Below, one piece after another: positions 5,434 through 37,700 of a stretch of 40,929 bases of DNA. How positions within the stretch are numbered: the first letter of the stretch is position 1; the number at the start of each line of letters is the position of its first letter. A program made the translations under genes and the position numbers. The notes below the pieces were generated by a model. The model saw nothing but the letters and a program-made list of their open reading frames with translations, did no database searches and was not told the DNA's origin. The stretch comes from Patescibacteria group bacterium (GTDB lineage: Bacteria; Patescibacteriota; Minisyncoccia; JAHIHE01; JAGLIN01): assembly GCA_034660995.1 (NCBI GenBank), contig JAYEKL010000063.1:5449-46377 (forward strand). The letters are read 5' to 3'.

Positions 5434-5589
5434 GTATTAAGTATATAGTATTAAGTATTAAGTATATGGTATTAAGTATTAAGCATCCCACTTAATATTT
5501 TTCGATTTACAATATTCTTCAACCTTGTGGAGAAGTTGTACGCATAGAAGTTATTATATGCAAAAGTTCTCCATAAAGTCGAACAATAT
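5434..5589 (+). repeat. Family-D element, copy D2 (left 7-mer arm + core)
   Basis: (gtattaa)n arm ending in hairpin tattaag-catccca-cttaata, followed by the core ttcaaccttgtggagaagttgtacgcatagaagttattatatgcaaaagttctccataaagtcgaacaatat. Confidence 0.8.
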
Positions 5590-5656
5590 AAATTGAATGT
5601 AGCAGACTATATATGTTAAAATGTTAGTATGTTAAAATGACTAGGGGATTGACCCC

Positions 5657-6990: not shown

Positions 6991-7088
6991 TAGGTATGGC
7001 CTTTTCTTATAATTCCCCTCTAGAGAGGGGGTTGGGGGTGTGTTAAAAAGCTTGTTACACACCCCTTACCCCTCTCAAGAGGGGAATA
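6991..7088 (+). repeat. Family-A GC-rich triple-hairpin element, copy A1
   Basis: ttttcttataattcccctctagagagggggttgggggtgtgttaaaaagcttgttacacaccccttacccctctcaagaggggaata. Hairpins are cccctct/agagggg, ggggtgtgt/acacacccc and cccctc/gagggg. Termini are inverted (aattcccctctagagagggg vs cccctctcaagaggggaata). Confidence 0.85.
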
Positions 7089-9513: not shown

Positions 9514-9730
9514 GACAAGGGAAAGGGAATTAGTATTAAGTGAACTAGTATTAAGTATTAAGTATTAAGCATCCCACTTAATATTCTTCGACCTTGTGGA
9601 GAAGTTGTACGCATAGAACCTTATTTCGCGCAAAAGAATATTATATACAATATTCCTTGACTCACAATATCTTTCTGTGACGCTAGTGCTTAATACTTAA
9701 TACTGCATACTTAATACTAGTTCCCTTGTC
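9514..9730 (+). mobile_element. Family-D element, copy D3: complete MITE-like unit with both terminal inverted arms
   Basis: The left end gacaaggga...ctagtattaagtattaagtattaagca and right end tgcttaatacttaatactgcatacttaatactagttcccttgtc are inverted repeats built from 7-nt units. The core ttcgaccttgtggagaagttgtacgcatagaa lies inside. There is no ORF. Confidence 0.8.
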
Positions 9731-10480: not shown

Positions 10481-10588
10481 TATTAAGTATTAAGTATTAA
10501 GCATCTCACTTAATATTCTTTGACCTTGTGGAGAAGTCGTACGCATAGAAGTAATTACATACAATAGTTCTCCATAAAGTCGAAGAAT
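10479..10588 (+). repeat. Family-D element, copy D4 (left arm + core)
   Basis: agtattaagtattaagtattaagcatctcacttaatattctttgaccttgtggagaagtcgtacgcatagaagtaattacatacaatagttctccataaagtcgaagaat. Confidence 0.8.
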
Positions 10589-10697
10589 GTAATAAGTAGA
10601 GTCTGAATTTTCAATTTGGTATTTTCTCACTCAAGAAACTAATAATATTTGACTTGGGAGAGGACCAGTCTAATGCTGGGAATTTTAAGTTTAATAA

Positions 10698-14695: not shown

Positions 14696-14793
14696 AGGCT
14701 CTGCTGATTTTCTTATAATTCCCCTTTAGAGAGGGGGTTGGGGGTGTGTTAAGAAGCTTGTTACACACCCCTTGCCCCTCTCAAGAGGGGAAT
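14696..14793 (+). repeat. Family-A element, copy A2 (inside the ribosomal operon, between rpmJ and rpsM)
   Basis: aggctctgctgattttcttataattcccctttagagagggggttgggggtgtgttaagaagcttgttacacaccccttgcccctctcaagaggggaat. It is followed at 14797-14820 by a D-arm-like cttaaatactaaatacta. Confidence 0.85.
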
Positions 14794-17907: not shown

Positions 17908-18024
17908 GCTCTGCTGATTTTCTTATAATTCCCCTCTAGCCTTGTCCGCCTTGGGAGGGAGAGGGGGGTTAGTTGGTGTGTTAAAAGCTTGTTACACATC
18001 CCTTGCCCATCTCGAGAGGGGAAT
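17905..18024 (+). repeat. Family-A element, copy A3 (with extra insert in first hairpin); begins at the rplQ stop codon
   Basis: taggctctgctgattttcttataattcccctctag + ccttgtccgccttgggagggagag + gggggttagttggtgtgttaaaagcttgttacacatcccttgcccatctcgagaggggaatag. The first three bases (TAG, 17905-17907) are the rplQ stop. Confidence 0.8.
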
Positions 18025-18083
18025 AGCCATTATTTGAGGAAAATAACGAATCTGTCTGTAGTAATACTGTATATATTTTTTAA

Positions 18084-20276: not shown

Positions 20277-20575
20277 GTGTTAAGTATTAAGTATTAAGGT
20301 TTTTGTTGCATGAATATTTGAATTTAACTTATTTGAACCATTTTTGCAAATTAATATTTTTTTAAAAATTGCTTAAACAAACTAGGATTTATTATTCATA
20401 TAATAAAGTAAATAAAGTCTGCTGATTTTTTTATAATTCCCCTCTAGAGAGGGGGTTGGGGGTGTGTTAAAAAGCTTGTTACACACCCCTTGCCCCTCTC
20501 AAGAGGGGAATAATCGGTAGTCCCTAAGTATAAAATATTAGGCTTAATACTTGATACTAAATACTTAATACTAAT
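20277..20575 (+). mobile_element. D-type terminal arms enclosing unrelated cargo that includes A4
   Basis: Left arm agtgttaagtattaagtattaagg (20277-20298) and right arm ggcttaatacttgatactaaatacttaatactaat (20541-20575) are inverted. The interior lacks the D core but contains A4. Confidence 0.55.
20419..20512 (+). repeat. Family-A element, copy A4
   Basis: ctgctgatttttttataattcccctctagagagggggttgggggtgtgttaaaaagcttgttacacaccccttgcccctctcaagaggggaata. Confidence 0.85.
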
Positions 20576-21871: not shown

Positions 21872-24613
21872 ATGAAAAAAGTTTTTAAATTGGTAATATT
21901 TTTAGTTTTAGTGGTTTTAATATGTAATACTGCTAAAGCTGTTAATATAGTTCCTTCTGCTATTATAGGGAATACTATTCAAGATGAAAATGATACTATT
22001 GTTATCACTTTTAATGAGTCAGTAACAGCTGCAGATGGAAATTGGTCTAGTAATGAGTTTACTTCTATTAAGAGTCCAATCGGAGTGTCTTTATCTTTGA
22101 CTAACGCATCTTTTGCTTATAGTGGCAATGTTTTAACAATTACACTGGATTTAAATACGGATAACGCCTATCTTAAAAATGGAAATATTATTGCTGTAAC
22201 TCCCGCTCTAGAAGCTATAGTTGACAGTACTTCTAATTTTTTACCAAATAATGAAGTACGAGGAACAATGGCAGTAACTGGAGATACTAGCGCTCCAATG
22301 GTAGCTTTGACTTATGACCCAGATAGAATAGTGGAATATACTGATTTTATAACCATAACTGCAACTTTTAGTGAGAGCTTGGAAGAATCTTCTCCATGTC
22401 CGTCAATTGCAATTAATACAGAAGGAGATGGAAGTCTAAGCAGTACAAATATGTCTAAGGTTTCTGAAACGGTTTGGACATATATCTGGGAAGTCCCAAA
22501 TGGTATTGACGAAAATGGAGTTGCTACTATTAATATTAATGCTACTGACTTAGCTGGAAATTATAGTCAAGTTGCTGCAAATAACACAAGAAATGTTAGT
22601 AATAGTTATGATGCGGTCAGTCCCAATATTATTGATGATTTGGAAGTTTATGCCACTACTAGCAACACTGCGACTTTAATTTGGAAGGCGCCGGGAGATG
22701 ATGGTGATATTGGCGTAGCCTCAAATTATGATATTAGATATGCATTATCGCAAGCTGAAATTTTGAATTGGTATGCTGCCACTCAGGTTAATAATGAGCC
22801 AAAACCTCAAATTGCCGGAACAAATCAAACTATAACTGTAACTAATCTTGATTCAGACGCGACCTATTATTTTGCTATAAGAACTTCAGACGAAGCGTTA
22901 AATATATCGTCACTGTCCAATATTGCTGATGGAATTACGCTAAAACCGTTAGACGAGACTGCTCCAGATGTTGTGACAGATCTAATAGTTTCTTATGTTA
23001 CTTCAAATTCTGCTGTTTTAAGCTGGATAGCGCCGGGAGATGATCGTGATATTGGAACTGCAACGAGCTATGATATTAGATATTCATCTTCGCGTTTGTC
23101 AACTTTAAATTGGTATGCCGCGACACAAATTAACAACGAACCACAACCGCAAATTGCCGGAGCTAATCAAACTGTAACAGTAAACGGACTTGATGCTAAT
23201 GCGACTTACCATTTCGCTATGAAAACTTATGATGAAGTAGAAAATGTTTCCGCAATATCTAACATAGTCAATGGTACTACCTTAGAGTTAGTAGATACTG
23301 TTACTCCTGATGTCATTACAAATTTAAAAGTTTCTCGTGTTACTTCAAACTCTGCTGTTTTAATTTGGACAGAGACTGGCGATGACGAGGATATTGGAAC
23401 TGCTTCAAGCTATGATATTAGATATTCAGAAAAGCCTATTAACGAAGTTGTTTGGTCGTCTGCGAATAGACTTAATCGTTCGATTAATCCATACATTGAT
23501 GGGGCAAATCAGACTGTTACTGTTACTGGACTTGATCCAGACACAATTTATTATTTCGCCATAAAAGTTTCCGATGAAGCATCAAATGTTTCAGAGTTAT
23601 CTAATATTGCAACAGGGACTACTTTAAAATATCTTGATAGAGTTGCGCCAGAAAGAGTGCGTGAATTTAATATAACAAGCTTATCAAAAATAAATAGCAC
23701 TGCTGTTATAACATGGGTAAATCCTGCTAATAAGGATTTTTCTAATGTGTTATTGATTAGAAGTGAAGATAAATATCCTTCACATATTGATGACGGAACT
23801 GTAATCTATAAAGGAAAAGGTAGTATTTTTAAAGATACTAAAACAGAAGATGAAAAAGTCTATTATTATAATATTTATTCTTTTGATAATGACGATAATT
23901 ATTCATTACCAGCGCAGAAAGTGTTTTTTTCTAATAATACGCTTGTAAAAAAACGCTATGAAGATAAAATTTATGTCGTGATTAACAGTGAAAAGCGCTG
24001 GATTCCAACGCCGGGAGTATTTAATAGAAATAGATATAAATGGGAAAATATTTATGAATTTTATGATAATATTATTGATACTATAAAAACTGGTGAACAT
24101 ATAGAGGATGATGAAGAAATAAAACTTGTTAAAAGTATGAACAGTTCGCGAGTTTATCTTATCAAAGGATACAGAAAAATATGGATTAAGACTATGAACG
24201 CATTTGTTGGCAGTGGATATGAATGGAAAAATATTATTGATATGGATATAAACGAGATAAGGGCTCACAATGATATAAAATTAATAAAGGAAGAGAATGA
24301 TTATCGTATTTATTATGTTCATAGTGAAATTGGAATGAAAAGACTTATTCCAAATATGATAACGTTTTTGTCGTATCCTTCAAGTAAGTGGGAAGATATT
24401 GAAATAGTAAGTAGAGCAATAGCGGATAGTTATGAAAATATAAATCTAATTAGAAGATTTGATGATTGTAATGTTTATCTTCTTGAGAATGGAGTTAAAA
24501 GACGTATTATGTCGCAAGAGGTTTTCAATGCAATGGGTTTTGATTGGAATAAAATAGCGGAAATAAATAATACCGAATTTAGCCAATACGAAACAGGTCA
24601 GAGTATTTATTAG
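21872..24613 (+). CDS. Secreted surface protein with tandem fibronectin-type-III-like domains and C-terminal repeats
   Basis: Signal peptide MKKVFKLVIFLVLVVLICNTAKA. Three 114-aa tandem units have an FN3-like pattern (TSNSAVLxWxAPGDDxDIGTAxSYDIRY...ATYYFAIKxxDE). Four C-terminal repeats follow, of the type VYLIxxGxKRxIxxxxxFxxxGxxWxxI. Confidence 0.8.
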   Translation: MKKVFKLVIFLVLVVLICNTAKAVNIVPSAIIGNTIQDENDTIVITFNESVTAADGNWSSNEFTSIKSPIGVSLSLTNASFAYSGNVLTITLDLNTDNAYLKNGNIIAVTPALEAIVDSTSNFLPNNEVRGTMAVTGDTSAPMVALTYDPDRIVEYTDFITITATFSESLEESSPCPSIAINTEGDGSLSSTNMSKVSETVWTYIWEVPNGIDENGVATININATDLAGNYSQVAANNTRNVSNSYDAVSPNIIDDLEVYATTSNTATLIWKAPGDDGDIGVASNYDIRYALSQAEILNWYAATQVNNEPKPQIAGTNQTITVTNLDSDATYYFAIRTSDEALNISSLSNIADGITLKPLDETAPDVVTDLIVSYVTSNSAVLSWIAPGDDRDIGTATSYDIRYSSSRLSTLNWYAATQINNEPQPQIAGANQTVTVNGLDANATYHFAMKTYDEVENVSAISNIVNGTTLELVDTVTPDVITNLKVSRVTSNSAVLIWTETGDDEDIGTASSYDIRYSEKPINEVVWSSANRLNRSINPYIDGANQTVTVTGLDPDTIYYFAIKVSDEASNVSELSNIATGTTLKYLDRVAPERVREFNITSLSKINSTAVITWVNPANKDFSNVLLIRSEDKYPSHIDDGTVIYKGKGSIFKDTKTEDEKVYYYNIYSFDNDDNYSLPAQKVFFSNNTLVKKRYEDKIYVVINSEKRWIPTPGVFNRNRYKWENIYEFYDNIIDTIKTGEHIEDDEEIKLVKSMNSSRVYLIKGYRKIWIKTMNAFVGSGYEWKNIIDMDINEIRAHNDIKLIKEENDYRIYYVHSEIGMKRLIPNMITFLSYPSSKWEDIEIVSRAIADSYENINLIRRFDDCNVYLLENGVKRRIMSQEVFNAMGFDWNKIAEINNTEFSQYETGQSIY
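22610..23635 (+). repeat. Three exact-length 342-bp tandem coding repeats (FN3-like units)
   Basis: Unit starts (Asp codons of DAVSPN / DETAPD / DTVTPD / next DRVAPE) fall at 22610, 22952, 23294 and 23636, each 342 nt apart. Confidence 0.85.
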
Positions 24614-24652: not shown

Positions 24653-24962
24653 TGTCATCTCAATCCGCCGGCTGGCGGAGAGAGATCTATAAGCTAAACA
24701 AGTCTCATTTAAACCTTTCTTATTTCCTGTATAGTATAGCTTACAGACCTGCCTGTCCGGCAGGCAGGTTTCTCACCCTATCGGGATTTGAAATGACAGT
24801 TACAAAAACTTGTCATCTCGACTGGAGCGATAGCGAATCTCGAAAAAATGCGTTGATGTCATCTCGACTGGAGCGATAGCGGAATGGAGAGATCTGTGAA
24901 CTGATTAAATCTCACATAGCATAGTTCTTAAATTTCTCACCCTATCGGGATTCGAAATGACA
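24653..24962 (-). repeat. Family-B composite hairpin-repeat cluster, copy B2 (reverse orientation)
   Basis: Contains tgtcatctcgactggagcgatagcg... twice, ttctcaccctatcgggatt(c/t)gaaatgaca twice, and tgtcatctcaatccgccggctggcggagagagatct. The reverse complement matches the B1/B3 order, including the linker ctatacaggaaataagaaaggtttaaatgagacttgttta. Confidence 0.85.
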
Positions 24963-24990: not shown

Positions 24991-25024
24991 AGTCTATTTT
25001 GCAACGGCCGTTGCAAAATAGACT
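24991..25024. repeat. Perfect 34-bp palindrome
   Basis: agtctattttgcaacgg|ccgttgcaaaatagact: 17-bp arms with no spacer and a GC-rich centre (cggccg). Confidence 0.9.
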
Positions 25025-25156: not shown

Positions 25157-26548
25157 ATGACACAAAAAAACGAAGATTTAATGGACAAAATAGTTTCACT
25201 TGCTAAAAGAAGAGGTTTTGTTTTTTCTGGAAGCGAAATTTATGGCGGTTTGGCGAATACTTGGGATTACGGACCTGTCGGGGTTGAATTGAAAAATAAC
25301 ATCAAGCAGGTTTGGTGGAAGTTTTTTGTTAAGAGTAGAGAAGATGTTGTCGGAATAGACGCTGCGATCTTAATGAATAGTCGTGTTTGGAAAACATCTG
25401 GGCATGTGGCTGGATTTAACGATGCTCTTGTTGACTGTCGGGCTTGTAAAGCAAGAATCAGAGTTGATCATTTAATTGAAGACAGTTTGAATATGAAGGC
25501 TGAAGGGATGACCACTGAAGATATGACGAAATTAATAGAAGAAAATGATATTAAGTGTCCAGTTTGTGGAAAAAAAGATTTTACAGATGCCAGAAAATTT
25601 GGTCTTATGTTTAAAACTTATCAGGGAGTGACGGAAGAAGATAAAAATATAATTTATCTTCGTCCTGAAACAGCGCAGGCGATGTTCGTAAATTTTAAAA
25701 ATGTTTTAAATTCTACACACAAAAAAATTCCATTTGGCATAGCGCAAATTGGGAAAGCATTTCGCAATGAAATAACACCTGGAAATTTTATTTTTAGAAC
25801 AGTTGAATTTGAGCAGATGGAACTTGAGTATTTTATTGATGAAAAGAATTGGGAAGAATCGTTTAAATATTGGCAAAAAGAAATGGCAAGTTGGCTTGAT
25901 CATATTGGCATAAAAAAAGAAAATTATTCAATAAGAGAGCATGATAAAGACGAGCTTTCGCATTATAGTAAAAAGACAATTGATTTTGAATACGATTTTC
26001 CATTTGGAACAAAAGAGCTTTATGGACTTGCGTATCGGACTAATTTTGATCTAACAAGTCATCAAAATTCAAGCGGGCAAAATATGGAATATTTTGATAC
26101 AGAAGGTAATAGAAAATATATCCCACATGTTATTGAGCCGACATTCGGAGTTGATAGAACTATTCTCGCGGCAATGGTTGATGCTTATTGCGAGGAAGAA
26201 GTATCAACGGCAAATGAAAAAACAGAGACACGAGTGGTAATGAAATTCAATAAAAATATCGCGCCAGTAAAGGTCGCAATTCTGCCTCTTAGCAAAAAAG
26301 AAAATTTAAGCAAAAAGGCAAAATATATTTTTGATTTACTAAAGACAGAATTCGCCTGCCAATACGACGAATCACAAAGCATTGGCAAGCGCTACCGTCG
26401 ACAAGATGAGATCGGCACGCCGTATTGTGTGACGGTTGATTTTGAGTCGTTAGAAGATGATGCGGTGACGGTGAGAGATAGAGATACGATGGAGCAGGAA
26501 AGGGTGAAAGTTGAGGAATTGGTAGGATGGTTGAAAGATGTTTTTTAG
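25157..26548 (+). CDS. glyQS: Glycine--tRNA ligase (alpha2-type class II)
   Basis: 463 aa with RRGFVFSGSEIYGGLANTWDYGPVGVELKNNIKQVWW, YLRPETAQAMFVNF, GIAQIGKAFRNEITP and EPTFGVDR. The last ~195 nt are visibly more GC-rich than the rest of the gene. Confidence 0.93.
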   Translation: MTQKNEDLMDKIVSLAKRRGFVFSGSEIYGGLANTWDYGPVGVELKNNIKQVWWKFFVKSREDVVGIDAAILMNSRVWKTSGHVAGFNDALVDCRACKARIRVDHLIEDSLNMKAEGMTTEDMTKLIEENDIKCPVCGKKDFTDARKFGLMFKTYQGVTEEDKNIIYLRPETAQAMFVNFKNVLNSTHKKIPFGIAQIGKAFRNEITPGNFIFRTVEFEQMELEYFIDEKNWEESFKYWQKEMASWLDHIGIKKENYSIREHDKDELSHYSKKTIDFEYDFPFGTKELYGLAYRTNFDLTSHQNSSGQNMEYFDTEGNRKYIPHVIEPTFGVDRTILAAMVDAYCEEEVSTANEKTETRVVMKFNKNIAPVKVAILPLSKKENLSKKAKYIFDLLKTEFACQYDESQSIGKRYRRQDEIGTPYCVTVDFESLEDDAVTVRDRDTMEQERVKVEELVGWLKDVF

Positions 26549-26660: not shown

Positions 26661-26710
26661 ACTTTTCGATTAAATTGAAAACTTAATAATCATAATATAA
26701 TATTAATATT

Positions 26711-26845
26711 ATGAAGAAAGATAAAACATACTATATTTATATTATAGCAAACATTACTAACAATGTTTTGTATAATAGTAGAAAAATAATTTACATTGAT
26801 GATCTGGAATTTAATTCGCAAGGCTGTTTTTGCCAGAAGAAGTAA
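26711..26845 (+). pseudogene. Truncated GIY-YIG nuclease gene (only the first ~22 codons are homologous)
   Basis: MKKDKTYYIYIIANITNNVLY matches MKTDRAYYIYITTNITNNVLY of the intact gene at 29206. A 27-nt identical run (caaacattactaacaatgttttgtata) ends at about 26776, after which the frame runs into unrelated sequence. Confidence 0.7.
26779..26794 (+). repeat. Left copy of perfect 16-bp direct repeat tagaaaaataatttac
   Basis: Identical 16-mer at 28310-28325. It lies 2-3 nt after the point where GIY-YIG homology stops. Confidence 0.9.
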
Positions 26846-26913: not shown

Positions 26914-28269
26914 ATGAAATTTATAAACAGGGAAAGAGAATTAGAAGCGATAAAGGAAAAATTAAATTCTGAGAATTTTGAATTTTATGTTATTTATGGG
27001 CGAAGAAGAATTGGCAAAACAGCTCTTTCTCTAATAAGTGTGAAAAATAAAAAAGCCATTTATTATCTAGCGACCGAAGAAAACAATTTGAGAAGATTCA
27101 AAGAAGTTGCTTCTAAATTAATTCCAGAAGTAAAATACGCCGAAGAAGATTTGGAAGCGATTTTTAGTTTTTTGAAAAATAAGACAATAATTATAGACGA
27201 GTTTCCAAATTTGATAAAAGAAAATCCAAAAGTTGTTTCGGAAATGCAAAGGATTATAGACCTTGTCCTAAGGGAAACAAAAACGAAACTGGTTATTTTA
27301 GGGTCGTCTATATCTATGATGGAAAGCAAGGTTTTGAGCTATCGCTCTCCTTTGTATGGAAGAAAGACCGGACAGATAAAACTGAAACCTTTGAAATTTT
27401 CGCAAATGAGAAAGTTTTTTCCCAAAGCGTCCGCGGAGAGAGCGGTTGAAATTTTCGGTTTTGCCGACGGAGTTCCTTTTTATTTGGAAAAAACAAAGTA
27501 TCCCTTTTGGAAATATTTGGATAAAGAATTAAAAAGCGTAGATAGCTTTTTAAAAACAGAAGTTGATTTTTTAATGAAATATGAATTTTCAGAAACAAGA
27601 ACTTATAAAAAGATTTTAGAAGCGATTGCTCTTGGGAATACCAAGTCAGGTGAAATTAAAAATCAAATCGGATTTAAAAAAACAGATATAACTCCGTATT
27701 TAAAAAATTTAATAGAAACGGAGTTCATTGAAAGAGATGTTCCTCTCTTAGAATCCGCAAAATCAAGAAAGGGAAGATATTATATCAAAGATAATTTTGT
27801 GAATTTTTGGTTTAAATTTATTTATCCAAATCGCAGTTTTATGGAAGAGGGAATTTTTTCCGCTGGTGAAATAAAAGAAAAGTATAACGCTTATCTCGGC
27901 TTTGTTTTTGAAAAAATTTGCCGAGAATTCTTAATTGAAAAAAGGAAAAAATTACCGGTTAATTTTTCAAAAATCGGTAGACAGTGGGGCGCGATTCCCG
28001 GCGCTGAAAAAAGAAAGAATCAATATGAAATTGATCTGCTTGCTTTAAACGATAAAACAAAGCAAATTATTTTTATAGAATGCAAGTGGCAGAATTTAAG
28101 AAAAGGGCAAGCGAGAAATATTTTAGAAGAATTAAGAGAGAAAAGCGGTGTTATTGAATGGAACAATAAAAAGCGGAAAGAATATTTCTGTTTAATGGCG
28201 AAGAAAATTGAAAATAAAAAAGAGCTGAGAAAAGAAGGATTTTTAGTTTTTGATTTGGAGGATTTTTGA
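26914..28269 (+). CDS. AAA-type ATPase of the archaeal-ATPase/DUF234 type with PD-(D/E)xK-like C-terminus
   Basis: 451 aa with Walker A GRRRIGKT and Walker B TIIIDEF. A central wHTH-like segment (KKILEAIALGNTKSGEIKNQIG) follows. The C-terminal YEIDLLAL...IIFIECKW resembles a restriction-endonuclease-fold D...ExK motif. Confidence 0.8.
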   Translation: MKFINRERELEAIKEKLNSENFEFYVIYGRRRIGKTALSLISVKNKKAIYYLATEENNLRRFKEVASKLIPEVKYAEEDLEAIFSFLKNKTIIIDEFPNLIKENPKVVSEMQRIIDLVLRETKTKLVILGSSISMMESKVLSYRSPLYGRKTGQIKLKPLKFSQMRKFFPKASAERAVEIFGFADGVPFYLEKTKYPFWKYLDKELKSVDSFLKTEVDFLMKYEFSETRTYKKILEAIALGNTKSGEIKNQIGFKKTDITPYLKNLIETEFIERDVPLLESAKSRKGRYYIKDNFVNFWFKFIYPNRSFMEEGIFSAGEIKEKYNAYLGFVFEKICREFLIEKRKKLPVNFSKIGRQWGAIPGAEKRKNQYEIDLLALNDKTKQIIFIECKWQNLRKGQARNILEELREKSGVIEWNNKKRKEYFCLMAKKIENKKELRKEGFLVFDLEDF

Positions 28270-28309: not shown

Positions 28310-28325
28310 TAGAAAAATAATTTAC
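28310..28325 (+). repeat. Right copy of perfect 16-bp direct repeat tagaaaaataatttac
   Basis: Identical to 26779-26794. Its last bases run directly into the glyQS 3' remnant. Confidence 0.9.
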
Positions 28326-28522
28326 CTGCCAATATGACGAATCACAAAGCATTGGTAAGCGCTATCGCCGTCAAGATGGAATTAGCACGCCCGTATTGTG
28401 TGATGATTGATTTTAAAAGTTTAGATGATAACGCAGTAACAGTGAGAGATAGAGATACGATGGAGCAGGAGAGGGTGGGGATTGGGGAGATAAAAAAATA
28501 TTTAGAAGAAAAATTAAGATAG
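28324..28522 (+). pseudogene. Displaced, frameshifted 3' remnant of glyQS
   Basis: Hand alignment to 26354-26548 gives about 123 of 146 identical nt up to ggagcagga, plus a 1-nt indel (gcacgcccg vs gcacgccg) that breaks the frame. It encodes ...CQYDESQSIGKRYRRQD then, after the shift, ...PYCVMIDFKSLDDNAVTVRDRDTMEQERV. It has its own stop at 28520-28522. Confidence 0.85.
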
Positions 28523-29186: not shown

Positions 29187-29205
29187 AAATTAGGATTAAA
29201 GTGTT

Positions 29206-29496
29206 TTGAAAACAGACAGAGCATATTATATTTATATCACAACAAACATTACTAACAATGTTTTGTATATTGGAATAACTAATAATTTACCAAAAAGAAT
29301 ATACGAACATAAAAACGGTTTGGTAAAAGGTTTTTCTAAAAAATATAAAGTTAACAAATTAGTATATTATGAGAATACAAACGATGTAAATTCTGCTATT
29401 GCGAGAGAAAAGCAATTAAAAAATTGGCATCGGGAGTGGAAAATGAATTTAGTAGAAGCTAAAAATCCAGGATTTGTCGAGTTATTTATAAGTTGA
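29206..29496 (+). CDS. Small stand-alone GIY-YIG nuclease (UPF0213/YhbQ-like)
   Basis: 96 aa (TTG start) with YYIYITTNITNNVLYIGITNNLPKRIYEHK (GIY...YIG...R...E), KLVYYE and AIAREKQLKNWHREWK. Confidence 0.85.
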   Translation: MKTDRAYYIYITTNITNNVLYIGITNNLPKRIYEHKNGLVKGFSKKYKVNKLVYYENTNDVNSAIAREKQLKNWHREWKMNLVEAKNPGFVELFIS

Positions 29497-29793: not shown

Positions 29794-29817
29794 AACAAAT
29801 AATTTCTACCCGGTTTT

Positions 29818-30125
29818 AGCTGATTTTCTTATAATTCCCCTCTAGAGAGGAGGTTGGGGGCAGGGTAATTCACTCTTGACAAAATAAACCTGTCATTCCG
29901 ACCGGAGCAAGCGAGGCACGAGCGAGCGGAGTGGAGGAATCTGTAAACACAATTATGTTTTGCTTATTTAGCAAATTACATTTTATCCGCTCACAGATCC
30001 CTCGGCTCCTATCGTTGCTCGGGATGACAAAAATGAGAAGATTTTAGGAGGAGTGAATTACCCTGGGGTTGGGGGTGTGTTAAAAAGCTTGTTACACACC
30101 CCTTGCCCCTCTCAAGAGGGGAATA
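29818..30125 (+). repeat. Family-A element, copy A5, split by insertion of another element
   Basis: The left part tagctgattttcttataattcccctctagagaggaggttggggg (to 29860) and right part gggttgggggtgtgttaaaaagcttgttacacaccccttgcccctctcaagaggggaata (from 30066) together reconstitute an A copy. Confidence 0.85.
29861..30065 (+). mobile_element. 205-bp MITE with perfect 15-bp terminal inverted repeats, inserted into A5
   Basis: TIRs cagggtaattcactc / gagtgaattaccctg. It is flanked by duplicated ggttggggg (29852-29860 and 30067-30075). The interior holds two opposed B-type units (tgtcattccgaccggagc...ggaggaatctgt and cagatccctcggctcctatcgttgctcgggatgaca). Confidence 0.85.
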
Positions 30126-34352: not shown

Positions 34353-34686
34353 TGTCATTTCGAACGGAGAGAGAAATCTATAAACTATACTATGCCAGAA
34401 ACGAGGAAGGTTTAAGTGAAACTTGTTTAATTCATAGATCTCTCCATTTCGCTATCGCTCCAGTCGAGATGACAAGTTTGTTTTATTCTTATTCCAAACA
34501 TAGTTGTCATTTCGAATCCCGATAGGGTGAGAAATCTGTAAGCGGATAAAATGGTTTGTTAGGAATAAATTAACTTGAAAACAGAGGTATAGTGTGCTTA
34601 CAGATCTCTCCATTCCGCTATCGCTTCAGTCGAGATGACATCTACGCGTTCCTTCAAGATACGCTATCACTCCAGTTGAGATGACA
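34353..34686 (+). repeat. Family-B composite hairpin-repeat cluster, copy B3
   Basis: Units present, in order: tgtcatttcgaacggagagagaaatct; agatctctccatttcgctatcgctccagtcgagatgaca; tgtcatttcgaatcccgatagggtgagaaatctgtaagcgga; cagatctctccattccgctatcgcttcagtcgagatgaca; plus a partial unit. It ends 32 nt from the leuS stop. Confidence 0.85.
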
Positions 34687-34717
34687 TCTACGCACTCCTA
34701 ACTTCTAACCTTCTAAT

Positions 34718-37700
34718 TCAAACTACCACATTAATTAATCTTCCTTTTACGAATATAATTTTTTTAATTTCTTTTTCCTCAATCCATTTTTTTAATTTTT
34801 CACTTTCAAGAGCGATTTTTTTTGCTTCCTTCTCTGAAATATCTGCTGGGACTTTAATTTGGTCGCGGAGTTTTCCGTTGACTTGAATTACGAGCTGAAT
34901 TTCACTATTTTTGGTAAGCTCAGGATCAAATTCTGGCCAAGATTGCAGATGAATACTTTCTTTTTCTCCAGATAATTTCCATAGTTCTTCTGTAATATGC
35001 GGAGCAAAGGGGGAGAGGAGAATTAAAAATATTGGATATTGGATATTGGATATTGTTTTTTGTTTTTCCATTCCATTTGCAAGAATCATCAATGAACTAA
35101 TTGCTGTGTTGAATTTTAAATTTTCTATATCTTCAGTAACTTTTTTTATTGTTTGATGTAATAATTGTTCTATATTTTTATCTTGTAGGGGCGCAAGATT
35201 TTGCGCTCTCTCATTGTTTGTAGCAACAAGTAGGGACGCAAAATTTTGCGTTCTCGTTTTATCGGGGAACACAAGATTTTGTGTTCCTACTTTGCTTTGC
35301 ATTCCCCAAACTCTTTCTAGAAATCTGTTCATTCCAATTAAACTATGTGTGTTCCATGGAATTGCATCGCCATATGGACCCATAAACATCTCATAGAGTC
35401 TAATTGTGTCTGCTCCATATTCTTTGATAACTTCATCGGGATTTACGACGTTACCGCGCGATTTGCTCATTTTTTGTCCATCTTCGGAAAGTATCATTCC
35501 ATGCGATCTCCTTTTTATGTATGGCTCAGCGGTATTCACATATTTTAGATCAAATAAAAACTTGTGCCAAAAACGAGAATAAAGAAGATGCAAAGTTGTA
35601 TGTTCCATTCCGCCGTTATATAGATCAATAGGCATCCAGTGTTTTAATTTTTTAGACGAAGCAAATTCTTTATTATTTTTAGAATCTATATATCGCAAAA
35701 AATACCAGCTTGATCCAGCCCAATTTGGCATTGTATCAGTTTCTCTTTTTGCGCTATTACCACATTTTGGACATTTCACATTTACCCATTTATCAATTTT
35801 TGCAAGAGGGGATTCACCCGTATCCGTCGGTTCGTAATTTTTTACTTCTGGTAATTCAAGCGGCAAGTCTTTTTTAGATAATGAGATATTTTCAGTTATA
35901 TTTATTTTTTCAAATTCCCAGCCAACAAGTCCGTTTTTTTGAATTCTATCAACGTAATCTTTTGTAAAACTGTAAGTTTTTTTCAAGTCATCTAATTTAT
36001 TTATTTTGATTTCCGGAATAATATTTTTTATTAAATCTTTTTTTTCAAACAGCTCTTCCAGATTTTTGAAATTATAAACTGTCTTTATTTTTACAATTTC
36101 AAAATCATCCGTGTTTTTATTATTTATCTTTATCAGATCACCAATTTTTATGTCTCCGAAATATCTTTCTTTTTCTTCAGGATTTAAAGCTCTGGTTTCT
36201 ACGGTTTTTCTGTCTGCGATGATTTGATTCCAAACATTATCATCTCTAAAATTAAGCTCCATCTTAATTTTAAATCTCCTTGAACCACATTCTTTACACT
36301 TCACAATCGGAATCGGTTCGCCCCAATAATGCTGTCTCGAAAAAACCCAATCTCTTAATTTATAATTTACCGCCTTTTTGCCGAGTTTATTTTTTTCCAG
36401 CCATTCGGTTATTTCTTTTTTAAATTCAGCTGTTGTAAGTCCATTAAATTGTTCTGAATTTATGGCAATTCCGTCTTCTGATAAAAATTTTTCCCCATTT
36501 TGAAAAATATCCCAATGAATTTCTAATTCCGACAAATTTATAAAATCCTTTACCTTTTCTTTTTCTAGCCAAATGCCATTATGGTTTTTTACCTCCTCTT
36601 TTTTTGGTTCTATAAAACTGTTGTCTAATAATTCTATGTAAATACAATTTCTTTTCAAATCGCAACGATTAACATCTTTATGCGCCGCAAAAAAACGACT
36701 GTAAATTGTATTTCCAATTCTTTTAACAACACGCATATTTTGATAACCGGATTCTTCTTTTGCTTCTCTAAGAGCTGCTTCTTCAGCACTTTCTCCTTTT
36801 TCAATGCCACCGACTACAAAAGTTTTCCAATCATTTTTACTTTTACTCCAGTCTAAGCAAAAATATTCATCTTTTTCCCAGTGTTTAATAATTACATCCA
36901 CAACTTCTCTTTTTGTATTTTTTTTGTCTTTCCTGATTTTATTTTTACCCTCACCAATAAATAATGGCGCTATAACTTGTCTTATCTCCAACCCAAATTT
37001 TTTCGCAAACTCAAAATCCCTTTCATCATGCGCCGGCACCGCCATAATCGCGCCCGTGCCATAAGAAGCCAAAACATAATCCGCGATCCAAATTGGAATT
37101 TCTTCGTTATTAATCGGATTTATCGCTTTAATCCCTTTCAATTCAACCCCCGTTTTTTCTTTTGCCAAATCAGTCCTGTCTAAATCAGATTTTTGCTTAG
37201 CTTTTTCAATATATTTTTTCACTTCTTCCAAATTCAAAATTCTAGATTCCAAATTCTTTATCAAATTATGTTCAGGAGACAAAACCATATAAGTACATCC
37301 AAATAAAGTATCGGGTCTGGTGGTGAAAACTTCAATAAATTTTGAATTTTGAATTTGTAATTTTGAATTTATTTGTAATTTGGAATTTGTAATTTGGAAT
37401 TTAATAGTCGCTCCTTCCGATTTACCAATCCAGTTAATCTGCTGTGTTTTAATTTTATCTAAATAGTCAACTGTTTCTAGGTCTTTAATCAATCTGTTTG
37501 CGTATTTTGTTATTCTAAGCATCCATTGTTTCATAGTCTTCTTTTCTGTTGGCGCGCCGCATCTTTCGCAAGCATCATTGACAACTTCTTCGTTTGCTAA
37601 TCCTATTTTACAGTCGGGACACCAATTGATTGACATTTCCGCTTCATAAGCCATTCTTTGATTATCAATGTATTCTTTTTTCTCATTGTCGTTTAAATCT

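Follow-up and report, generated by a model that had tools for sequence, protein, structure and literature searches.

We analysed a stretch of 40,929 nt from a Patescibacteria group bacterium (contig JAYEKL010000063.1, positions 5,449 to 46,377; hereafter the window), in which leuS, the gene for leucyl-tRNA synthetase (LeuRS), carries three short palindromes. We consider these to be, with a probability of roughly 0.75, decayed in-frame copies of a GTAG-tagged hairpin repeat of the repetitive extragenic palindromic (REP) type. They lie in a variable linker of the protein that holds a HAM1/RdgB domain in close relatives, and the cluster of three is the scar of the loss of that domain. The published definition of GTAG REPs comprises a short GTAG-tipped hairpin, alternative stems, and occurrence as singletons and inverted dimers; on this basis we assign the units to the GTAG REP elements; they are not Rickettsia palindromic elements (RPEs) and probably not classical miniature inverted-repeat transposable elements (MITEs). 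In place of the hairpin MITE proposed in the first-pass annotation of the window we favour a 22–28-nt REP-type unit, each copy in leuS being one whole hairpin without distinct terminal inverted repeats and internal sequence.

The palindrome cores read, on the plus strand, GCGCAAGATTTTGCGC (35191-35206), ACGCAAAATTTTGCGT (35236-35251) and GGAACACAAGATTTTGTGTTCC (35267-35288), just as the first-pass annotation had written them, and belong to units c, b and a, respectively (Table 1). All three lie within 110 nt. Their centres are spaced 45 and 33 nt apart and the frame is kept, again as first described, with all units read in a single frame as VGTQNLVF (a), RTQNFASL (b) and RAQNLAPL (c). The peptide xTQN(L/F)(A/V)x, initially counted three times, holds for units a and b, which have TQN; unit c reads AQN. 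With their flanks, units a and c are GTAGGAACACAAAATCTTGTGTTCC and AGAGCGCAAAATCTTGCGCCCCTAC. GTAG stands on the plus strand at 35185-35188 and 35230-35233, and CTAC at 35287-35290; units a and b form an inverted doublet with the GTAG termini outward, and unit c is a singleton. The hairpins of the three units have arms of 8, 10 and 11 bp, none with more than a single mismatch. Relative to the family consensus given below, unit a differs at two stem positions, each changed on both arms (GGAACAC/GTGTTCC versus GGGACGC/GCGTCCC).

The palindromes in leuS are real and clearly exceed what chance would give. Exact matches to the degenerate core YRCAARATTTTGYR are confined to the three leuS sites in the 40.9 kb, and with one mismatch the core gives 9 strand-matches against 1.85 expected, a number reached in none of 100 shuffles. 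The linker forms a much more stable fold than shuffled sequence does (z of -6.1 as RNA and -6.4 as DNA), and in the minimum-energy structure of the RNA units a and b are paired with each other. Beyond its leuS site, GCGCAAAATTTTGCGC with up to three mismatches occurs nowhere in the window. The 28-nt form gtaggggcgcaaaattttgcgcccctac and any GTAGG...CCTAC hairpin were searched across the window without a match; this 'longer palindrome form' of the first-pass annotation is therefore absent from the window, yet dozens of public genomes contain it as a perfect 28-mer. We could recognise no target-site duplication in leuS. At gathering thresholds Rfam reports no RNA gene at the leuS locus, its sole match in the window being tRNA-Tyr at 2829-2911, with which ARAGORN agrees.

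The palindrome belongs to a family spread over many genomes. We scanned one genome per GTDB species (596 Gb) with the 22-nt pattern RCGCAARATYTTGCGYCCCTAC, for which about one chance match is expected; unit b matches this pattern exactly and unit c matches it too. It was matched at at least 119 loci (throughout this text, numbers with L denote loci and numbers with P proteins), some of them intergenic and others read in frame within genuine genes, in Bacteroidota, Fibrobacterota, Balneolales, Chloroflexota, Calditrichota, Desulfobacterota, Cyanobacteria, methanotrophic Gammaproteobacteria and six classes of Patescibacteria. The family consensus is GTAGGGRCGCAAAATTTTGCGYCCCTAC, written out GTAGGG(R)CGCAA(R)AT(Y)TTGCG(Y)CCCTAC, and the perfect 28-nt palindrome GTAGGGRCGCAARATYTTGCGYCCCTAC is present in about half of the matches listed. 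Among all copies listed from the scan, GTAGGG is the commonest head (62 of 137), and the outer R/Y pair, which the pattern leaves free, is G-C in 53, A-T in 77, A-C in 7 and G-T in none, a distribution that reads as clean covariation for a hairpin. Flanking sequences are unrelated from locus to locus, and several genomes are multi-copy, with matches on at least nine contigs in Tangfeifania, at least eight in WQTS01 and at least three in Balneola. The dispersed hairpin family postulated at first pass is thus borne out in other genomes, with copies between genes and in other genes. Often the flanks of the 28-nt palindrome are themselves a locus-specific inverted repeat (L016, L019, L028, L037, L105, L111, L118); such flanks look like an element at the tip of a pre-existing hairpin, or like a flank copied upon insertion. 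An exact-string literature search for GCGCAAAATTTTGCGC or QNFASL gave no match, and one joining 'Candidate Phyla Radiation' with 'repetitive extragenic palindromic' returned nothing related.

Copies with at least 60 open codons on each side mostly use, among the matches listed, the same frame as in leuS, giving VGTQNFASL or VGAQNFAPL, partly because one of the three frames contains TAG. Host genes confirmed by Pfam encode topoisomerase I (L042) and RecG (L114), both in Patescibacteria, an enzyme dependent on pyridoxal phosphate (PLP; L040) and three proteins with a sorting tail of the type IX secretion system (T9SS; L035, L080, L109). In another member of the Patescibacteria (L004) the leuS linker holds GTAGGGGCGCAAAATTTTGCGCCC and a second GTAG palindrome, and a third lies in a UvrD-like gene.

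The LeuRS of the window has the Pfam domains tRNA-synt_1, tRNA-synt_1_2 (the editing domain), Anticodon_1 and NUDIX, the last at residues 452-548. It matches solved LeuRS structures at E 2e-64 to 1e-46, and its best database relatives are Patescibacteria/Paceibacteria proteins with 70-84% identity. We modelled it with AlphaFold2 from a 51-sequence alignment (mean predicted local distance difference test (pLDDT) 84, predicted template modelling score (pTM) 0.75). The pLDDT is below 50 only at residues 273-283, 385-388 and 972-1003; the last segment is the palindrome linker, between the confident helices 949-968 (RFLERVW) and 1006-1024 (LLHQTIKKVTEDIENL). The palindrome insert is therefore predicted to be disordered, and the model leaves it unstructured between two helices, as the surface loop suggested at first pass would be. 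In the phmmer alignment to the solved LeuRS chain 5ah5_A, the linker is gapped and poorly conserved.

We also surveyed the linker in 80 further Patescibacteria leuS loci from a metagenome scan, mostly distant HAM1-less forms. The stretch from RFLxRVW to KKVTEDI has a baseline length of 20-26 residues and is often expanded, by palindromes (three in L176; also L128, L171 and L175), by heptamer arrays (L138, L143, L148 and L199) or, in L147, by another widespread dispersed repeat, VILSGAKDL. Short repeats of all the kinds that these genomes carry thus accumulate in the LeuRS linker, which is a general sink for them. With 52 residues, the linker of the window does contain an insertion relative to repeat-free relatives, as first proposed, although the excess is about 26-30 residues rather than about 35. 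Nor are all the extra residues derived from repeats, as six of them (LVATNN) are a remnant of the deleted HAM1 domain.

Besides the lost HAM1 domain, the LeuRS of the window has inserts at residues about 430-570, where the NUDIX domain lies, and about 630-770; the second of these, of ~130 residues and beta-rich, is ASCH-like by eye only and has no Pfam match. The LeuRS of relatives differ in which of the HAM1, NUDIX, alpha/beta-hydrolase and ASCH inserts they contain, and some have wrongly been given the name 'RdgB/HAM1 pyrophosphatase'. Two heptamer arrays also lie within leuS: (AATTTGG) x 9.7 at 37338-37402, which encodes QITNSKLQINSKLQIQNSKF in the editing domain (residues 273-283, pLDDT below 50), and (ATATTGG) x 3.9 at 35029-35055 in the anticodon-binding domain. 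In relatives, other repeats occupy both sites.

In the closest relatives (P0001-P0012 and P0015) a HAM1/RdgB domain (PF01725) is inserted in the linker, with palindromic units at both junctions, which the DNA confirms. In relatives the sequence ...ASLLVATNNQGKLKEL... leads into ~195 residues of HAM1. P0011, for example, reads ...KVGTQNLVFSSKEKRAQNLAPLQNDKLQTI, then LVATNNQGKL...HAM1...DHLKK, then RTQNFASLQNENIEPLLHKTI; the window has ...KVGTQNLVFPDKTRTQNFASL-LVATNN-ERAQNLAPLQDKNIEQLLHQTI, in which the upstream doublet is followed by the first six HAM1 residues and these by the downstream unit. Unit c is the counterpart of the unit at the C-terminal HAM1 junction, which is KRTQNFASLQNENIEP in P0011, KKTQNFAPLQNKNIEP in P0012 and KRAQNFVPLQDKSTER in P0015. 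The distance from LVATNN to LLHxTI is 194-212 residues in the relatives and 16 in the window. In a neighbour-joining tree (785 core columns) the LeuRS of the window falls inside the HAM1-bearing clade, sister to P0002 and next to P0004, and the loss of HAM1 is therefore derived. Two or more further lineages without HAM1 are nested likewise, which makes at least three independent ones with the window.

The GTAG palindromes at the same junction differ among close relatives: the sister locus L204 carries GTAGGGACAGGTTTCAAACCTGTCCGTAC, and L205 has identical 27-nt GTAG units, GTAGAGACGCGATTTATCGCGTCTAAA, on both sides of HAM1 as direct repeats. HAM1-less proteins such as P0027 and P0030 read KVETRFIASKPQ..., which resembles the product that recombination between two flanking repeats might leave. 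More distant HAM1-bearing LeuRS (P0016-P0038) have no palindromes at the junctions; the units were therefore added after the domain.

The number of units varies within a living population, a point that the first-pass annotation had proposed to check among strains. Four runs (X1-X4) of one brine-metagenome study, the source of the DNA, contain the window, and their contigs were compared at ≥97% identity. A 78-nt in-frame deletion allele (Table 1) removes unit b and LVATNN and brings the linker back to baseline length (...KVGTQN/LAPLQDKNIEQLL...). In X1 the full form has a depth of 10.2 and the deleted form of 9.1, with flanks at 14.5-20.7, and in X2 the depths are 6.4 and 9.9. The full form was not seen in X3, where the deleted form is present, nor in X4, where the deleted form has a depth of 4.2 and lies on a contig of 788 nt, flanked on either side by over 190 nt. 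Since this allele fuses two units, the repeats cause in-frame copy-number change in a living population, and we infer that the deletions were produced by short-repeat recombination.

The position of the units suggests an alternative, in which the hairpins are selected as mRNA structure at domain boundaries, slowing ribosomes or stabilising the mRNA for co-translational folding, and the similarity to REPs is secondary. In several relatives the units sit exactly at the domain junctions, the RNA fold is predicted to be strong (z -6.1), the paired changes keep the arms complementary, and many REPs have been suggested to be transcribed and possibly to be RNA elements (Di Nocera, 2013; PMC3733652). 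However, the same junction has a different palindrome or none in close relatives, many HAM1-bearing LeuRS (P0016-P0038) are free of hairpins there, and the allele without two of the three units is common, being the sole form seen in two of the four samples. We regard selection for mRNA structure as improbable.

Less probable still is a local origin, by tandem slippage duplication of a 33-45-nt palindrome-bearing segment of leuS without any mobile element. Such an origin would suit units that lie within 110 nt in one frame at multiple-of-3 spacings, in a genome rich in slippage-prone tandem repeats, some of them in leuS, and in a window without a further copy. Yet unit a is of opposite polarity and the sequence between the units is not repeated, and we reject tandem duplication as the origin on account of the 195-residue domain that parts units b and c in relatives, together with the presence of the same 22-28-nt palindrome at at least 119 unrelated loci across phyla.

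We give hardly any credence to a protein-level motif, with xTQN(F/L)Ax selected for LeuRS function (e.g. tRNA or partner binding) and the DNA palindromy incidental. Most copies in open reading frames, and the transposase-like family described below, do share the frame and the peptide, but this recurrence is partly due to TAG in one of the three frames; moreover, very low model confidence predicts disorder for the segment, the peptide occurs in functionally unrelated proteins and the DNA also between genes, the covariation is on base pairs and not on codons, and two of the three motifs are gone in the deletion allele. An assembly artefact, with the clustered repeats or the missing HAM1 arising from collapsed or chimeric metagenome assembly, is just as implausible: repeats below the k-mer size can mis-join and the region is a bubble in the assembly graphs, but we reject it on the depths in the four runs, the depths of the two alleles in X1 add up to about that of the flanks, the three-unit form stands in error-free contigs of two independent runs, no loose end leads toward a HAM1-containing form, and orthologous units are found in independent assemblies.

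The palindrome also lies inside genes for Y1/HUH transposases resembling RAYT, the REP-associated tyrosine transposase, in at least nine loci (L022, L044, L049, L060, L075, L078, L093, L107 and L010). It directly follows the HUH motif in eight of these nine and comes earlier in the protein in L010; an example protein reads ...MPNHVHGIIII...VGTQNFASL...NKFGPQSKNLGSIVRGFK.... For three of the reading frames (L078, L044 and L022), NCBIfam gave only NF047646 (REP-associated tyrosine transposase), with E values from 4e-17 to 3e-13, and homologues are called 'REP element-mobilizing transposase RayT' in several database sources. The loop could be identified in 111 homologues, 75 of which have the strict loop motif (V-E/G-T/A...), mostly as V(E/G)TQNFASL, and most of the remainder have a near variant of it. 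In one large RAYT-like clade (the nine loci and proteins P0121-P0240) the palindrome lies in frame in the loop after the HUH motif, sometimes several times (P0169, P0178, P0209). RAYT-like genes without an embedded palindrome stand 0.2-1.7 kb downstream of leuS on two Patescibacteria metagenome contigs (L140, 5503-5970; L162, 4042-4269). Carriage of the palindrome in the reading frame of a RAYT-like gene family would explain the identical 28-mer across phyla. We came across no account of a REP that lies within the gene for its own transposase.

RAYT mobilisation of single-stranded hairpins is established for REP/RAYT systems in Proteobacteria. We hypothesize that RAYT-type HUH/Y1 transposases move the present hairpins as single-stranded DNA too, and that the units reached leuS in this way. 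A copy in an essential gene would survive only in a dispensable, disordered surface loop, with a net length that preserves the reading frame, and in a frame without the TAG stop, giving V-G-T/A-Q-N-F/L-A-S/P-L; the LeuRS linker, which joins the catalytic body to the anticodon-binding helices, would be such a loop. In the Paceibacteria-like clade of the window, HAM1/RdgB probably entered the loop first, with REP units then added at both HAM1 junctions, an inverted doublet upstream and a single unit downstream. Deletion of ~180 HAM1 codons in the lineage of the window brought the three units within 110 nt, where, as short direct repeats, they may continue to favour deletions that keep the frame.

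Several observations weigh against the assignment to mobile GTAG REPs. Intergenic copies in this genome, which a landing hairpin had led the first-pass annotation to expect, were not found: there is no copy of the palindrome outside leuS in the 41-kb window, and none of its type outside leuS in the ~43 kb of flanks of the relatives L001 and L002, so that any dispersal or activity of the family in this lineage is hypothetical. Nor did tblastn find a RAYT-like gene in the window, and the RAYT-like proteins elsewhere score 50-62 bits, under the NCBIfam curated cut-off of 80. The 28-nt unit is not a multiple of 3, which leaves the retention of the frame to be accounted for. The copies in leuS are inherited, not recent: the same units occupy matching positions in relatives whose LeuRS is 70-84% identical, so they did not land recently in this genome, the event first imagined. 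Finally, the deletion of HAM1 left LVATNN behind and was thus no simple recombination between two units.

More tentatively, we speculate that GTAG-REP units serve as portable recombination handles at accessory-domain junctions in the aminoacyl-tRNA synthetases of candidate phyla, driving recurrent precise in-frame loss, and perhaps exchange, of domains such as HAM1, and that the REP persists across phyla through a master copy in frame in its own RAYT-like gene. The first part of this idea fits the three HAM1-less lineages, the direct repeats of L205 and the live 78-nt allele, and is not established by them. The assignment to GTAG REPs itself extends in-frame colonisation of essential genes by REP-type elements, known in Proteobacteria, Verrucomicrobia and Rickettsia, to the reduced genomes of Patescibacteria. 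Three-unit and one-unit alleles in one brine community amount to a natural experiment on the remodelling of a protein by repeats. For annotation, it matters that these LeuRS proteins are often mis-named after their HAM1 insert and that QNFASL-type peptides are repeat-derived and not functional motifs. If the link to the RAYT-like genes is true, one 28-nt hairpin and its transposase would form a replicator spanning many phyla.

Table 1. Position of leuS, its linker and the elements within it, in coordinates of the window.
Feature	Position	Strand	Remarks
leuS, leucyl-tRNA synthetase, 1158 residues	34718-38194	minus	Open reading frame, Pfam and structure matches
Variable linker, residues 964-1010	35165-35305	minus	From the RFLERVW helix to the anticodon-binding helix LLHQTIKKVTEDI; holds all units
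Unit a	35264-35290	minus	Sense GTAGGAACACAAAATCTTGTGTTCCCC; GTAG head 5'; encodes VGTQNLVFP; orthologous unit in L001 and L002
Unit b	35230-35254	minus	Sense AGAACGCAAAATTTTGCGTCCCTAC; CTAC tail 3'; encodes RTQNFASL
LVATNN, remnant of the first HAM1 strand	35213-35230	minus	Deletion scar at ~35210-35213
Unit c	35185-35210	minus	Sense GAGAGCGCAAAATCTTGCGCCCCTAC; CTAC tail 3'; encodes RAQNLAPL
78-nt (26-codon) in-frame deletion	35194-35271		Joint 35193 to 35272; shared 10-nt core CAAGATTTTG joins unit c to unit a

The window contains further repeats. Arrays with a 7-nt unit are unusually many for 41 kb and mostly intergenic (2916, 5434, 9547, 9689, 10479, 19196, 20276, 20546 and 40501), with units such as AGTATTA/CTTAATA and TTGGAAA. 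A dispersed element of ~81 nt with inverted termini (AATATTCTTCGACCTTGTGGAGAAG ... CTTCTCCACAAGGTCGAAGAATATT), at 2584-2664, 5511-5591, 9580-9660 and 10512-10592, is often found beside AGTATTA heptamer arrays. Five copies of a dispersed intergenic element of ~94 nt, composed of nested GC-rich palindromes (CCCCTCTAGAGAGGGG...GGGGGTGTGT...ACACACCCC...CCCCTCTCAAGAGGGG) and without an Rfam match, lie at 6994-7087, 14700-14793, 17964-18026, 20418-20511 and 29816-29870 plus 30064-30124, the last split by ~190 nt. A third family (CGCTATCGCTCCAGTCGAGATGACA and its complement; 38-309, 24811-24881, 29891-29915 and 34353-34699) clusters at the start of the window and immediately downstream of leuS; a 97-nt segment of it at 137-233 recurs with 92% identity at 34464-34560. 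At 24991-25024, between glyS and the gene for a protein with fibronectin type III repeats, stands a perfect 34-nt palindrome, AGTCTATTTTGCAACGG followed by CCGTTGCAAAATAGACT. Three tandem 342-nt units occur at 22620-23622 in a 913-residue protein with fibronectin type III domains.

The 3' end of glyS (25157-26548) is duplicated with 81-82% identity (26340-26517 versus 28310-28488) downstream of an inserted ATPase gene (PF01637 and DUF234; 26914-28269), which looks like a mobile insertion that brought a replacement gene end. The start of a gene for a GIY-YIG endonuclease (29206-29496) is likewise duplicated (26709-26783 versus 29204-29278).

Rickettsia palindromic elements, selfish repeats, were reportedly described by Ogata in 2000. 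RPE-1 is ~100-150 bp long and adds 30-50 residues per copy. The resemblance to RPEs drawn at first pass, a palindromic repeat in frame in an essential gene that encodes a short peptide tolerated on the surface, is apt for how the units work, given the in-frame position in a disordered loop, and concerns behaviour only: with 22-28 nt, a GTAG tag, ~7-9 residues each and a Patescibacteria host, the units are not members of the RPE family. The intragenic RPE-4 and RPE-6 of R. conorii, too, belong to a CGTC-tagged superfamily and not to GTAG REPs (PMC3733652).

The LeuRS of the window falls in the clade of LeuRS-HAM1 and LeuRS-NUDIX fusions of Patescibacteria, which databases name 'RdgB/HAM1 family non-canonical purine NTP pyrophosphatase'. 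It keeps NUDIX and a six-residue HAM1 remnant and differs from those fusions in having lost the HAM1 domain itself. We found no publication on such fusions, and no literature search was aimed at them.

The closest known system is that of GTAG REPs and RAYT (Nunvar, 2010; Bertels and Rainey, 2011, on REPINs; Di Nocera, 2013), with which the present family shares a hairpin of 20-40 bp that ends in GTAG, stems that vary in complementary fashion, occurrence as singletons or as inverted dimers whose GTAG termini point outward, occasional in-frame intragenic copies (in genes of the tRNA synthetase, uvrD/helicase and topoisomerase types) and, in other genomes, co-occurrence with a RAYT-like Y1 gene. 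It differs in that its full form, a perfect palindrome of 28 nt, has even the GTAG tag paired (GTAG...CTAC), in that the identical sequence spans many phyla instead of being lineage-specific, and in that the palindrome lies within the frame of the RAYT-like gene instead of flanking it; the many dispersed intergenic copies typical of GTAG REPs were not found in the window or in the flanks of L001 and L002, nor was a RAYT gene found in the window, whereas other genomes do contain many copies. GTAG REPs, intragenic REPs and the association with RAYT were described together by Di Nocera (2013; PMC3733652), including REPs wholly inside open reading frames for a tRNA synthetase, a UvrD-type helicase and other repair proteins. 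The intragenic REPs of Opitutus terrae, Thauera, Xanthomonas and others in that work are likewise GTAG singletons or dimers, often occur twice per gene, encode 20-30 residues and have tRNA synthetase genes among their targets; unlike here, units at accessory-domain junctions, domain loss and segregating in-frame copy-number alleles do not feature in it (PMC3733652). Intragenic GTAG REPs are thus already known, and what is less ordinary here is their position at the junctions of a lost domain, their live polymorphism, and a palindrome shared across phyla within its presumed transposase gene.

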